DNA of 64,000 nucleotides from Escherichia coli. Its GTDB lineage: Bacteria; Pseudomonadota; Gammaproteobacteria; Enterobacterales; Enterobacteriaceae. The stretch is taken from assembly GCF_003334255.1 (NCBI RefSeq), contig NZ_QOWU01000025.1. One strand, written 5' to 3'. This document shows, piece by piece, positions 28,501-35,614 of this stretch (positions within the stretch are counted from its first letter, which is position 1; each line of letters opens with the position of its first letter). The position numbers are program-made.

Positions 28501-31500
28501 AATGACCACCGTTTTCCAGCAACACATTGTCTGCCACGTGATTGTGGATGGAGAATGCACCTTCACTATTCGTACCGCTCACCGTCGTACCGTTAGTGTT
28601 AGTTTTTAAAATTGCACCATCGTGCTGGGTAACATTTGTTGCCGTACCACCACTAACATCAAGCACGCCACCAGAATAAACTTCAATAACATCCGAGGTG
28701 CTGGTGTTATCAACAATTTGCGTGCCACCAGAATAGATATGCGTATTTTTTGCCGTTGACTTACTATTCAGAGACTGAGTTCCGCCTTCAATCGTCGTGT
28801 CCAGCGCACGGCTCTCATATACTCTTTGCTCACCGCCATTTTTAATGGTTGTTGTTTCTACTGTGCTCTGTTCAACATACTGTCGACCACCATTTATGGT
28901 TGTGTTCGTTGCCAGACTTCCTTGTACTACGTCCTGAGAGCCAGACTTATTTATCGTTGTACCATCAGCATGCCCTTGAACTTTTACTATCTGGCTACCA
29001 CCATCAATGAGTATTCCATTCGCACTCCCTCCCTCTACGCGTGAAGCACCGCCCTTAATTGTCGTTCCATTGCTGATACCCCCTTTATAAACGTCCTGAT
29101 TGCCACTCTCGATTGTCGTACCTGTGGAAATACCCCCGTCATGAATTGACTGTCTGCCACCGTTAATGGTTGTATTATTAGCCTGCCCCACAAAATTGTT
29201 ATGACTTCCTATATCTTGATATCCACCAGATTCAATAAGACTTCCATTAGATACCCCGCCATGAACATTCTGCTGGCCATGGTTGATAATATGAGTGTTA
29301 TTTGTTGTACCTCGTTCATCCACTTTTTGGTTGCCATCTACAGTCTCATCGTTTACCACACCAATAACATTAGTAGTGAAGGCAGCCATCCCGGGCGGGG
29401 CATATATCAAGGCAGATATCAATAAGGAAAGTACTGAGCGGCGACAATAATAGGGACTGGTCCTGTTCATAAATTTCATCCTCTGAAAAGTGAATACTGA
29501 GTAGCGTTTAAGCGACCTTAGCTTTGCTGCAACATCAGCCCACAGGCACCAGACCAGGGGATTCATCCTGAAGAGACAGCGCAAGTGTATTGTGTTCACC
29601 GCTCATCAAAGACATCATGATGAAATGATGATATTCCGCATAAGAATGAGGCATTTTTTAAACGCAGTGCGCTGAAGTGTGGTTGGATAAAAAAGTCAAT
29701 CCATTCAGGAAATACGGGCGTATTCTTTTCTTTCGACAATGAGGCCGTTGGCAAAATAAAATGATTTACATAATCGTTTCTGATGAATATCTTCTGCTCA
29801 CATAAAAATCACACAATAACTTTGAGATCGCAGATTGTTTTACTTTTACAGCATTCGTCCCCCCATTGTTGGGCAAATATAGATTGGGCCAGAGCACGAA
29901 AGTTAATACCACGTTCGCACAGCTCCTCCAACAGCACGACAAGATGCCACATACTGCGCCCCAGTCGGTTCAGTTTACAGACTAGCAGTGCGTTCCCTGC
30001 CGATGATGTCCTGACCAGTTTTTTCAGTCCGGACCTCCTGCCACGGTTTTACGTTGAAGTGGTAACCCTGAGCACGCAGTTCTTCAGTCAGGCGTGGTGC
30101 ACCGTAACGCTGTTATTGCTGGGTAAGATCAAAAAACTTTCAGGCAGCTAAGGAAAGTTGAACCAGACATTAGATGAAATATTTCAACCAATTACAGCAC
30201 CAATTCAGTCACTGCCAGCCCACCAAATAAATCAAGGGGTTACATGAAAACGTAGCCCCTTTTTCTTTGGTAGTGACACTAAAATGGATGTAGTGTGAAG
30301 AATAATCCCGTTTACTCAATCAATAATACATATTGTTTCAATCTACGTTATTATCTCTTTGTGAAAATTGCCATTTATTAATCATTGAAAACTGCTTTTA
30401 GAACTTGATACAACGGGACTAGTCACAACAGGACTATTCTCAACGGGATCATCCTCAGAGGAACTATCATCAAAGTCATCATCCATAAATAAAATATCAT
30501 CGAATGGTGCCACGCCCGTGATGAGTTTTATTTTATTATTACGATCAGTCAATACTCCACTTAAACCGTTTTCGCTCACAGGTTTTAATGATTTTTCATT
30601 ACTCTTGTTGTAAGCAGGCGCATTAAAAATACACGGAGTATCAACATCAAACAATGACGTTCCCCAGTTCACATATTGAATATCATAGTTACTGAAGTTC
30701 TGTCCAGAAAAGAAGCACCCCTTAAAATCCAATCCACGTAAATTATATAAACCACCCTCTTCTTTTTGGAGAGTAATGTTAATTTTGGCTATCTCCCGGA
30801 CATCATCGCCATTTTTGTATTTGAATACCGTTTCAAGATGTTCTCCAGACAGCTTGACTTCAGGAAATAATTTGAAATCAAAGCCTATATTATTATGTGT
30901 CAACGTAGATGAACAAAAAATGGAAAAAGCTTGCAGTGCTGAATTATAGCTATCGATTTTATCTTGAGGCTGAGCTCTTGGTAAAAACTTATAGCAACAC
31001 TCATAAAAATTAAACAGAAGCTCTGAAGACCTTGTATTTTTATCAAATAATACCCCCTTGAACTCATTCACAAACGCATCTTTTTTTTCTTGAATATCTA
31101 TGGGGTGTTCCTTTGACTCTGACAAAGATGAAATCTCATCTATTTTGTTTTCATATGAATTACGTGATTCCATACAGACATTTGGCGGCGTTTCTAAAAT
31201 AACACTACGCGTACTACTTGGCTTAAGTAAACCAACATGAAAATCACTTTTTCTTATATTATCGAAAAGGTTCTATTCATTTCTTTTAGCGCATTCAAAA
31301 AACTGATCGGCATTATTTTTATTCGATAATTTTTTAGTTTCAGAAAACACATTTTCATTGTTTTCCAGCTTTAGTTTAATGAGAAGATTTTCCCAGACCT
31401 GCTTGCTTAAACATATTACGTCAGGCTCACCAGAACTAACTAACTCGTGATTATTATTAAAGTGTACGTTGAATACCTTTAAGTTATTTTCACCAACTTC

Positions 31501-34500: not shown

Positions 34501-35614
34501 TTAAAAATTATAATGAGCGGTTACACAATACTAACTTATTTAACCAAAAATATCATAAAAAAGCCGTTATGAATTACATGGAATATCTGGTAACTTGTCA
34601 GTTGGATGAACAACAAATGTCATCACTGCTTTATGAAAGAGATGATTTAAGCGCCATTGATTTTTCATTGCTCATGAAAACGATAAAAGCCTTTTCATTT
34701 GGTGGAGATCTTCAAACCCTTGCATCAAAACCGGGTTCCACAATCTCAAGTATCCCATCAGAAAGACGGATATTGATTAACATTAACCACGATTTTCCTA
34801 ACAATGGTAATCTTTTCAATGACTTTCTATTTAACCATCAACAAGATGAACAATTAGCAATGGCATATATAGCCGCTCTGCCGTTCAGCAGGCCTTTAGT
34901 TTACTGGGATGGCCAAGTATTAAAATCAACGACTGAAATTAAAAATTATGATGGGTCCACGCGTGTCGGCGGTGAGGCGTAGCTTAATAAAGGTTGCTCT
35001 ACCTATCAGCAGCTCTACAATGAATTCCACGCATTATATATAGATAAAGCAGGAATATGGAGCGCATTTGAGGGTGTATCTGCAACTAAAAACGTTCTGG
35101 CCTTTAGTCGTGGGGATTCTGTGAACATTAATCACTCTCCTCATGATGGACTAGTTATAATAAATAAAGGAAACGAAGAAGTTGAAGGTACCTGGCCTAA
35201 CAAATTGCAACCTGGAATATACAAAAACATGGGGAGTAATAGCGTTAACATTATTATTAATAATACCCGAAAAATTATCCCCCCTGGTAAAGTATTTACG
35301 CTTAGAGGCGGAACTCTAAATATCAATATTCCTGGGCGTAGCGCTCTTCTTTTAGGGAAAACAGGAGAACCGCCGAACTATCTCTATTTATAATTTAATG
35401 TTATATCTGCCCCGATAAAACGGGGCAGATAATATGTTTAGTTTACTAACGGTCATTTTGCAGTGAAGCCATTTACTGTTTTTTATCGACCAGATAATCT
35501 GTTCTCTAATGTTAACTCCCCCTAACCTGTTGCTTTAGTTATTCATTTCCTGTCTCACTTTGCCTTAATACCCTACGTTAAATGTTACTAATTTGTTGCT
35601 TTTGATCACAATAA

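Follow-up and report, generated by a model that had tools for sequence, protein, structure and literature searches.

The stretch of Escherichia coli DNA analyzed here (64,000 nt of contig NZ_QOWU01000025.1, assembly GCF_003334255.1; hereafter the window) carries an AT-rich islet between ssrA and glaH (csiD), in which the following genes and features lie.

24,367-24,729: ssrA; the next gene is the autotransporter gene ypjA, with no prophage between them
29,535-29,654, minus strand: conserved small ORF of 39 aa upstream of ypjA (WP_001120794.1), annotated at the orthologous site in 12 fetched loci
29,878-30,045, minus strand: fragment of a serine recombinase (resolvase/invertase, pinH-type), 168 nt or 56 codons, lacking both ends (Pfam, RefSeq)
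30,234-30,268, plus strand: probable bidirectional terminator from a terminator scan, a 10-bp GC-rich hairpin with T-run ~115 nt beyond the stop codon of ypjCB
30,382-31,755, minus strand: ypjCB pseudogene, one 458-codon frame with DUF5507 and DUF5508 (NCBIfam NF050179) and an amber at codon 161
32,241-32,408, minus strand: unannotated conserved block in the ileY 3' flank, from cross-species conservation and predicted folding
32,321-32,408: long imperfect hairpin in the conserved block
32,292-32,313: GC hairpin in the conserved block
32,264-32,291 and 32,241-32,260: two further hairpins in the conserved block
32,506-32,581, minus strand: ileY, predicted tRNA-Ile2, anticodon CAU (Rfam tRNA model, 73.8 bits; ARAGORN; RefSeq orthologues)
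33,141-35,393, plus strand: ygaQ pseudogene, 2,253 nt, a 750-codon GH13 alpha-amylase-like frame with three in-frame TAG
33,471-33,473, 34,176-34,178 and 34,980-34,982: the ygaQ ambers, codons 111, 346 and 614, each TGG in intact alleles
34,518-34,667, no strand assigned: H-NS-repressed intragenic promoter fragment inside ygaQ, to which both primers of PMC7229825 map exactly
35,404-35,431, plus strand: 11-bp terminator-like hairpin directly 3' of the ygaQ stop codon

With a probability of roughly 0.85, this region is the known E. coli segment ypjA-5'region / pinH' / ypjCB' / ileY / ygaQ' / glaH-promoter, which is AT-rich and confined to Escherichia. The annotation matches that of K-12-like and other RefSeq genomes at 92.8-99.9% identity, and all components are already named in RefSeq/NCBIfam. 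The K-12 region (ypjA-pinH-ypjB/ypjC-ileY-ygaQ-csiD(glaH); RefSeq/EcoCyc) has the same genes in the same order with the same four amber codons, and a K-12-like genome differs from the islet by 6 substitutions and 0 indels across 6.1 kb; in K-12, however, the CP4-57 prophage separates ssrA from ypjA, whereas in the window strain it is absent and ypjA follows ssrA directly. The segment is thus real but largely ordinary and already known, and since it is annotated and its binding of H-NS is published, nothing changes for the specialist.

At the left end, the 39-aa ORF is part of the ypjA 5' region and lies outside the AT-rich core. The DNA at 29,600-29,858, likewise upstream of ypjA, is not mobile DNA; a paralogue of it with 85% identity sits next to the ycgH/ymgJ autotransporter remnant. 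The adjacent pinH fragment matches Pfam Resolvase (PF00239, E 3.1e-9) at model positions 48-101 of 145, and its orthologues are listed in RefSeq as 'recombinase family protein, incomplete'; mobile-element remnants had been proposed from the sequence alone, and this fragment is the only one. At the right end, the AT-rich glaH/csiD promoter region spans from the hairpin at 35,404-35,431 to the glaH start at 35,729.

The islet had been described as compositionally distinct from the flanking core genome and rich in long A/T runs, and sliding-window analysis bears this out. In 500-nt windows GC stays below 0.40 without a break from 30,001 to 35,800, longer than anywhere else in the 64 kb, with a mean of ~36% GC (0.363) against ~51% elsewhere in the window; for 29,600-35,700 the mean is 0.366 (range 0.29-0.456), compared with 0.508 ± 0.044 outside. 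A/T-only runs of at least 14 nt are concentrated within the same limits (11 of the window's 18). The DNA is compositionally foreign, with a GC3 of ~0.29 even in intact alleles of the islet genes. Neither uniform composition nor conservation throughout the Enterobacteriaceae was observed: GC content is 36% and the segment is absent outside Escherichia. The same facts bear on the notion that the segment is native, vertically inherited DNA that became AT-rich purely through non-function and decay, a history with which the pseudogenes of the window lineage and the ancient synteny with E. albertii would agree. That history is unlikely, because intact ygaQ alleles under selection are equally AT-rich (GC3 0.29), other Enterobacteriaceae have no homologues, and ygaQ divergence between E. 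coli and E. albertii greatly exceeds that of adjoining glaH.

The known, Escherichia-confined segment is old. In E. albertii tRNA(CAU), ygaQ and glaH occur in the same order and are likewise AT-rich, and this synteny makes the core of the segment ancient rather than strain-specific; the core, comprising ileY, the adjoining conserved block and ygaQ beside glaH, predates the split of E. coli from E. albertii. When retention was assessed part by part, 2,914, 3,078 and 3,458 of 5,426 complete genomes (only 54-64%) were found to carry the parts examined, in line with a plastic interval. The segment does not come and go as one unit; its parts disappear independently of one another, by nested deletions and by insertion of IS elements or prophages. 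Variants include a P2-like prophage inserted precisely at the 3' end of ileY, an ssrA-integrated island accompanied by an IS3 deletion that reaches into ygaQ, and a P4-like element at ssrA with the entire islet gone. Elements that insert at ssrA and at the 3' end of ileY, together with IS-mediated deletions, are the source of the variability between ssrA and glaH; mobility of the islet is not. In E. albertii a weakly OTU-like ORF (E 0.045) lies upstream of ileY.

With ileY inside it and ssrA 5 kb to its left, the segment shares location, low GC and patchiness with islands and prophages linked to tRNA and tmRNA genes (CP4-57 at ssrA; P2-like phage and ter elements at ileY), from which it differs in lacking an integrase, a duplicated att site and any sign of mobility. 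A duplicate of the 30-nt ileY 3' end was sought throughout the 64-kb window, allowing up to 3 mismatches, and none was found, nor was a pair of repeats flanking the segment; no integrase is present in the segment, where the 56-codon serine-recombinase fragment is the sole recombinase, and RefSeq annotates none in the orthologous stretch. A recent integrase-mobilized genomic island, inserted at ileY or ssrA and limited to a few strains, would account for the adjacency of tRNA and tmRNA, the low GC, the recombinase fragment and the variable presence; it is nevertheless very improbable, as the window has neither a tyrosine integrase nor an ileY 3'-end duplicate, the recombinase piece is of the serine type, and every part is present in more than half of the 5,426 genomes and in the same order in E. 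albertii. The sequence-only reading, which saw serial horizontal acquisition and decay at a tRNA/tmRNA hotspot, is accordingly right about foreign composition, restriction to Escherichia, a plastic interval and decaying genes; a recent, bounded island with integrase and att site is not what lies here.

Published data on the silencing of this DNA come from K-12 and not from the window strain; the window islet differs from a K-12-like genome by only 6 substitutions. H-NS sites are located in both spacers flanking ileY (PMC3946193); an intragenic promoter in ygaQ, one of six tested, is repressed by H-NS in a manner dependent on an AT-tract (PMC7229825); and Rho terminates transcription on the minus strand in a region 28 nt beyond ileY (PMC7815308). 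From this literature, H-NS binding combined with Rho cutting short the transcription from ileY would leave little of the segment expressed. The segment is AT-rich relative to its host and taxonomically restricted, and at ~36% GC it resembles the H-NS/Rho-silenced xenogeneic E. coli genes (Grainger and Ishihama laboratory data sets), with no feature to distinguish it from them.

A tRNA-Ile(CAU) had been placed in the islet, and it is there: a cloverleaf with anticodon CAU occupies 32,506-32,581 (minus strand), labeled tRNA-Met with anticodon CAT by ARAGORN, and its orthologues, of identical or near-identical sequence, are annotated as tRNA-Ile in every fetched RefSeq genome that carries the tRNA. 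The gene is known in the literature as ileY (PMC3032704, PMC11480407) and is treated there as a second tRNA-Ile(CAU) that differs from ileX at positions 6 and 67; ileX is essential and ileY is not, and ileY alone cannot replace ileX (PMC11480407). It is a second, dispensable copy of ileX that is predicted to read AUA after lysidine modification. Term-seq in K-12 found a 3' end that, carried over to the window, falls at 32,506, the end of ileY (PMC7815308), and elements carrying ter use the tRNA as an att site (PMC8193136). Stem covariation among ileY alleles at pairs 28-42 and 6-67 shows that it is still a foldable tRNA with compensatory stem change. AUA codons are 5-7 times commoner in the AT-rich neighbor genes (17.5-26.6 per 1000) than in the flanking core genes (background 3.8), and we infer that ileY probably serves as an extra AUA decoder. 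With ileY retained among AUA-rich genes, and with compensatory changes in it, whether tRNA supply is linked to AT-rich cargo becomes a testable question.

Possibly new in the segment is only the conserved block on the 3' side of ileY. It is found in 3,095 genomes at 95-100% identity; for comparison, a neutral level is given by the synonymous divergence of 0.31 in adjoining glaH. Within it, the plus strand of 32,252-32,320, whose 3' end is a hairpin followed by T6, barely changes from E. coli to E. albertii, with a single difference between the species, located in the hairpin loop, and a second variable site that is a G/A polymorphism within E. coli. Predicted folding is strand-specific: the minus strand reaches -55 kcal/mol (z ~-4.9) as against -34 kcal/mol (z ~-1.5) for the plus strand. 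In the alignment of the block, which holds only 5 distinct sequences, 99% of cells pair and 12 pairs differ on one side alone (G-U to A-U or G-C), with no two-sided compensatory change among the 5.

Annotation is nearly silent on this block. Among 40 sampled RefSeq records, 38 have no feature over it and 2 have a 'hypothetical protein'; a scan of 31,700-33,200 against Rfam at a permissive threshold matched the tRNA alone, with no family for the block; the literature search for an sRNA near ileY/ypjC found nothing; and the spacer between ileY and ypjCB had no match among 50,697 phage records. Two ORFs on the minus strand were rejected as genes. The first, of 41 aa (32,395-32,270), shows ~9 replacement versus 3-4 silent changes against E. 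albertii, all in the N-terminal half; the second, of 50 aa (32,262-32,414), is interrupted by a stop codon in E. albertii. No discrete transcript from the block was found in the curated K-12 Term-seq table, which lists no 3' end between 2,766,897 and the ileY 3' end at 2,785,762 (PMC7815308) and hence none at the plus-strand hairpin and T-run (32,320, or ~2,785,576 in K-12). That the block is a functional RNA element common to E. coli and E. albertii is a tentative reading, which we regard as possible rather than probable. It could take the form of a structured 3' trailer or sRNA released from the ileY transcript once H-NS/Rho silencing is lifted, or of a ~70-nt plus-strand sRNA bounded by a conserved -10 box (32,241-32,246) and by the hairpin with T6 (32,292-32,320). 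Either way, what stands beside ileY is a short, strongly constrained, strand-specifically foldable candidate element that is absent from Rfam and from the sampled annotation.

The two orphan genes that had been read on the left of ileY are a single gene: ORFs of 160 and 263 aa share one frame as the halves of ypjCB, split by an amber TAG at 31,273-31,275 (codon 161) that is CAG in strains without the stop, and in K-12 the halves bear separate names, ypjC and ypjB. Intact YpjCB of 449/484 aa is present in O145 and other strains, where the alleles score 930.7 bits against the curated NF050179 cut-off of 650, with Pfam E-values of 1e-135 and 1e-75 for DUF5507 and DUF5508. A dN/dS of 0.66-0.86 and relatives confined to Escherichia/Shigella in both protein and genome searches show ypjCB to be a fast-evolving orphan gene. 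The sole non-Escherichia match among 1.84 billion representatives (P0149; 3,960 aa, 12 stretches) is a repetitive adhesin with a low-complexity match that was judged spurious, and an E. albertii ORF upstream of ileY was rejected as the YpjCB counterpart because it is unrelated. An AlphaFold model built from 16 alleles has a pLDDT of 39 and for that reason is unusable; a literature search for work on YpjCB/DUF5507 found nothing.

On the other side of ileY, the nonsense-interrupted amylase-like gene that had been recognized from the sequence is ygaQ, with its three in-frame TAG codons. Intact YgaQ of 750 aa (WP_000491455) occurs in O145 and other strains (the intact cluster has 15,629 member sequences), and a dN/dS of 0.08-0.23 among E. 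coli alleles shows that intact ygaQ is under purifying selection; the predicted product is a divergent member of the GH13 glycoside hydrolases that has an N-terminal domain of its own. Pfam recovers Alpha-amylase_C at E 2e-5 and the catalytic domain at just 0.007, and a PDB sequence search also supports the GH13 assignment. A Foldseek search with a model of low confidence (mean pLDDT 52.8) retrieves amylases of B. subtilis and Pseudoalteromonas (E 1e-17; TM-score ~0.65, target-normalized). Like GH13 alpha-amylases (B. subtilis AmyE, Pseudoalteromonas AHA, secreted amylases of Vibrio/Aeromonas), YgaQ keeps the catalytic Asp/Glu/Asp and two His; the nucleophile D436, the acid/base E481 and the transition-state residue D551, in conserved regions II-IV, along with K439/H440 and H550, are invariant in 7 sequences down to 26% identity. 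The low-confidence model suggests that a TIM-barrel and C-terminal beta domain are present as well. Unlike these enzymes, with which it shares just 23-28% identity, YgaQ has N-F in place of N-H in region I, shows no signal peptide on reading of its sequence, in contrast to the secreted amylases, and carries an N-terminal extension of ~215 aa without a homologue outside the family, which matched only E. coli fragments when searched alone.

In 100,044 species genomes and 5.8 billion proteins, relatives of YgaQ above 34% identity are limited to E. coli and E. albertii. Next to a 34% homologue (P0008) lie genes like MarT/FidL, one like InvH, and an invasin. Between E. coli and E. albertii, ygaQ has a dN of 0.32 and a saturated dS (>2), in comparison with a dS of 0.31 in neighboring glaH; divergence so far above that of glaH means that the two alleles are perhaps not simple orthologues, and allelic replacement of ygaQ at a conserved locus is possible. 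The sole experimental paper reports that the 110-aa YgaQ fragment of K-12 acts as a single-stranded DNA nuclease on overexpression (PMC4725251). In many strains ygaQ is intact, selected and Escherichia-private, and strains such as O145 RM9467 are the ones suited to the study of YgaQ and YpjCB.

Gene decay in the window lineage is real: ypjCB and ygaQ are broken by nonsense codons here but have intact copies in other E. coli. The four premature stops, one in ypjCB (CAG>TAG) and three in ygaQ (TGG>TAG), are all TAG, and in this lineage, which is common to K-12, they show an order of loss that begins with ygaQ W614am, continues with ypjCB Q161am and ends with ygaQ W111am and W346am. Sister lineages lost ygaQ/ypjCB by frameshift, IS insertion or deletion instead. 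The islet is a small, clean case in which genes died step by step and the steps can be placed in order on a phylogeny. A burst of hypermutation or deaminase activity behind the four G>A nonsense changes was rejected, as substitutions against one fetched genome are symmetric (39 G>A versus 36 C>T) and the four changes arose at three different times; Dcm (CCWGG) hot spots were rejected too, the contexts being CATGG, ATTGG, CGTGG and AACAG. The uniformity of the stops might also mean that full-length ypjCB and ygaQ products are still made, the cell tolerating the ambers or reading through them, as a suppressor background might allow. Under a simple mutational model the post hoc probability of four TAG stops is ~0.006 and that of three TGG>TAG changes ~3e-4, and no frameshift has accumulated in the window lineage. 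To this reading we give next to no weight, because sister lineages that share W614am gained a frameshift, IS insertions and deletions, as expected of a dead gene, and because the overall substitution spectrum is strand-symmetric. As ileY and ssrA are the sole tRNA/tmRNA genes in the window, no suppressor lies nearby, and K-12 MG1655, which has the same alleles, is not known to carry an amber suppressor.

A second, weaker reading of the two lost genes is that ygaQ and ypjCB encode orphaned, secreted host-targeting proteins, the loss of which would track loss of a secretion system. Circumstantial hints of a type III effector are the missing signal peptide, the neighbors of P0008 and the weakly OTU-like ORF of E. 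albertii. Counting against an effector role, ygaQ is intact in two annotated genomes whose alleles lie toward the divergent extreme of those sampled, one of them from a cerebrospinal-fluid isolate.

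Sliding-window composition shows a sharp trough in GC content at ~30.0–35.7 kb, where values are 0.29–0.44, compared with ~0.50–0.55 to the left (ypjA and the sequence before it) and 0.54–0.61 from glaH (csiD) onward. In 500-nt windows the mean is 0.366 over 29,600–35,700 versus 0.508 ± 0.044 elsewhere; the longest block in the window with GC below 0.40 is 30,001–35,800, which contains 11 of the window's 18 A/T-only runs of at least 14 nt. Two more short stretches below 40% GC (45,001–46,100 and 51,101–51,800) lie outside the islet. Structural RNA genes and open reading frames were located as follows.

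24,367–24,729, plus strand: tmRNA gene, ssrA (ARAGORN and Rfam)
Ending at 29,599: 1,569-codon autotransporter (ORF list)
Minus strand: two ORFs, of 263 and 160 aa (ORF list)
32,506–32,581, minus strand: tRNA gene, anticodon CAU (ARAGORN and Rfam)
33,141–35,393, plus strand: four ORFs in one shared frame (ORF list)

The sequence-only reading had described 29,600–35,400, from the autotransporter to csiD, as a distinct AT-rich islet; the composition, ARAGORN/Rfam and ORF evidence therefore shows that the islet is real and not a chance fluctuation.

RefSeq annotation was compared for a K-12-like genome (L001) and seven other strains, and gives the order ypjA/ehaD, a 39-aa hypothetical protein, 'recombinase family protein, incomplete', ypjCB ('internal stop'), tRNA-Ile, 'alpha amylase C-terminal domain-containing protein' ('internal stop'), and glaH (csiD), lhgO and gabD. 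L001 differs from the window by 6 substitutions and no indels across the 6.1 kb, and megablast against 5,426 complete E. coli genomes returns full-length matches to 29,600–35,700 at 92.8–99.9%. The first description of the islet is accurate; the segment of E. coli chromosome that it covers is already known and annotated, and its binding by H-NS has been published. The only leads worth experiment are a conserved RNA-like block beside ileY (the tRNA-Ile2 gene) and the role of intact YgaQ and YpjCB. To the left, K-12 has the CP4-57 prophage after ssrA, whereas the window strain is without it, and the 3' end of ypjA comes straight after ssrA (24,730–24,889). The claim of mobile-element remnants survives in the recombinase piece, a 56-codon fragment that matches the central part of Pfam Resolvase (E 3e-9), but not for the first 259 nt (29,600–29,858), which are the ypjA upstream region and recur at 85% identity as a paralogue next to the autotransporter remnant ycgH/ymgJ. 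Including the 39-aa ORF and the sequence around it, the stretch 29,535–29,858 upstream of ypjA is 85% identical to its paralogue near minE (ymgJ), which precedes the remnant of the ycgH/ycgI autotransporter, and may represent a leader or regulatory region common to genes for AIDA-type autotransporters.

What had been taken for two orphan genes is a single gene, ypjCB (30,382–31,755, minus strand), one 458-codon frame cut by a TAG at codon 161 (31,273–31,275) that is CAG in strains without the stop. Intact alleles encode 449 or 484 aa, score 930.7 bits against the NCBIfam 'YpjCB family' (cut-off 650) and also match Pfam DUF5507 and DUF5508. The family is limited to Escherichia/Shigella in searches of 5.8 billion clustered proteins and of 1.84 billion representatives; the sole other match, a repetitive adhesin, was judged spurious. 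Within E. coli (the window copy and genomes L003–L006) alleles differ by 5–22% in protein sequence, including a 35-aa indel, and pairwise dN/dS is 0.66–0.86, meaning that selection is relaxed or diversifying. Diversity of this order is unusually high for a chromosomal gene whose position is fixed. The YpjCB structure model (pLDDT 39) was unusable.

The nonsense-interrupted amylase-like gene was correctly recognized: it is ygaQ, a single 751-codon frame (33,141–35,393) with TAG at codons 111, 346 and 614, all three of which read TGG in L004, L005 and L006, whose alleles are intact. Intact 750-aa YgaQ is common (15,629 sequences in one 90%-identity cluster), and because dN/dS among E. coli alleles is 0.08–0.23 the intact gene is under purifying selection. 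GH13 signals from Pfam and PDB sequence hits are weak but consistent; the catalytic residues Asp436, Glu481 and Asp551, together with two histidines, do not vary among sequences down to 26% identity, and a structure model of low confidence (pLDDT 53) nonetheless matches amylases of B. subtilis and Pseudoalteromonas (Foldseek E 1e-17). The N-terminal ~215 residues have no relatives beyond their own family, and no signal peptide is evident on reading the sequence. In 100,044 species genomes the only close relative outside E. coli is that of E. albertii (60% identity), the remaining matches being Vibrio, Aeromonas and Xanthomonas amylases at 23–28%. The only mid-distance homologue (34% identity, 824 aa) lies at 4,916–7,390 of a human-gut metagenome contig (L092), near a tRNA-Gln and neighbored by a truncated InvH-like lipoprotein gene, MarT- and FidL-like genes, an EAL phosphodiesterase gene and a large invasin/intimin-like gene. 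In the sole experimental paper a 110-aa K-12 YgaQ fragment is reported to be an ssDNA nuclease whose overexpression leads to mitomycin C resistance (PMC4725251).

The order of the lesions was derived by comparing eight strains. The oldest, the amber mutation ygaQ W614am, is common to strains that are 97–98% identical and is found in L008 and L012 too; the second, ypjCB Q161am, is common to strains at 99.0–99.5%; and the latest, ygaQ W111am and W346am, occur only in the window strain and K-12. Lineages sharing W614am later gained a 1-nt insertion, IS insertions or deletions, as would be expected for a dead gene. Each of the four premature stops (31,273–31,275; 33,471–33,473; 34,176–34,178; 34,980–34,982) is an amber codon and a G>A change on the plus strand; they arose at three different times. 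For the three TGG>TAG changes in ygaQ, P is ~3e-4 by a simple transition/transversion model applied post hoc and ~4e-3 with transitions only; the overall substitution spectrum is strand-symmetric. Dcm sites do not account for the stops, none of the four being at such a site. The amber pattern is noted as a curiosity and not as evidence of recoding.

The expected variability among E. coli genomes is found: the ygaQ 5' half is present in 3,458 of the 5,426 complete genomes, ypjCB in 3,078, ileY with both flanks in 2,914, and the whole 6.1 kb in 2,863. In L007 a P2-like prophage abuts the ileY 3' end; L008 has an island integrated at ssrA and an IS3 deletion, with only the last 1.1 kb of ygaQ remaining; and in L009 a P4-like element at ssrA adjoins glaH, the rest of the segment being gone. 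These replacement variants agree with the loss of ileY in E. coli W and B via separate IS-mediated deletions (PMC3032704) and with the use of its tRNA as insertion site by ter-carrying integrative elements (PMC8193136). The idea of a hotspot with decay thus holds for the interval, given its prophage, IS and deletion variants and ordered stops, but recent strain-specific acquisition is contradicted by synteny with E. albertii (L013), where the order tRNA(CAU)–ygaQ–glaH–lhgO–gabDTP is the same and the segment equally AT-rich. Because of this synteny, and because the ileY 3' end occurs only once in the window, flanking repeats are absent and there is no integrase, the islet core is old and not itself a mobile element. 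Between E. coli (33,141–35,393) and E. albertii (7,166–9,409) ygaQ has dN 0.32 and dS >2 (saturated), far above adjacent glaH (dN 0.016, dS 0.31), so that a divergent allele may have replaced the gene at a locus that stayed fixed, or the gene may have evolved very fast. E. albertii DNA beyond the tRNA, on the side away from ygaQ, differs from that of E. coli; AT-rich sequence there holds a 362-aa ORF (3,171–4,259, minus strand), unrelated to YpjCB, that contains the motif 'DGNCLYHAV' and weakly matches OTU cysteine proteases (E 0.045).

H-NS was found by genomic SELEX in both spacers flanking ileY (PMC3946193), and a ygaQ fragment that maps to 34,518–34,667 is an H-NS-repressed, AT-tract-dependent intragenic promoter (PMC7229825). 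An 'orphan' minus-strand region in the K-12 Rho-termination table (2,787,904) corresponds to ~34,648 on the minus strand, inside this promoter fragment; since it maps into ygaQ, it points to antisense transcription within the gene. In Term-seq data the 3' end of ileY falls at the K-12 position matching 32,506, with a Rho termination region 28 nt past it (PMC7815308). The paralogue ileX is essential and near-identical ileY dispensable (PMC11480407). In the window, L004–L007 and E. albertii, ileY alleles differ at 8 positions and keep the cloverleaf, with a compensatory G-C to A-U change at pair 28–42 and the series U-A, U-G, C-G at pair 6–67; the L007 allele has an uncompensated A28–C42 mismatch. 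AUA occurs 17.5, 26.6 and 12.4 times per 1000 codons in ypjCB, ygaQ and ypjA, versus 3.8 for long ORFs in the rest of the window, and ileY plausibly helps to decode these AUA-rich genes.

Between ypjCB and ileY, ~32,184–32,410 aligns with E. albertii at 85% amid unalignable AT-rich DNA, and 32,252–32,320 is almost invariant, the one difference being in a hairpin loop. The block 32,241–32,408 (E. albertii ~6,294–6,476) occurs in 3,095 genomes at 95–100% identity, and almost none of the sampled records annotate it. Its minus strand, the sense of ileY, folds into a long imperfect hairpin (32,321–32,408), a GC hairpin and two more stems at −55 kcal/mol (z ~−4.9), versus −34 kcal/mol (z ~−1.5) for the plus strand. 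All 12 variable pairs are one-sided changes that remain paired, with no two-sided changes among only five distinct sequences. Evidence against a discrete transcript is that the K-12 Term-seq data contain no 3' end at the block and that Rfam gives no match to it. Two small ORFs within the block do not behave as coding sequence. On the plus strand the region's best promoter-like site and a hairpin followed by T6 would bound a predicted RNA of ~70–75 nt. A second short block, in the ileY–ygaQ spacer (~32,905–32,975), likewise shows good conservation between E. coli and E. albertii where the AT-rich sequence around it has otherwise diverged, and may be a regulatory site for ygaQ.
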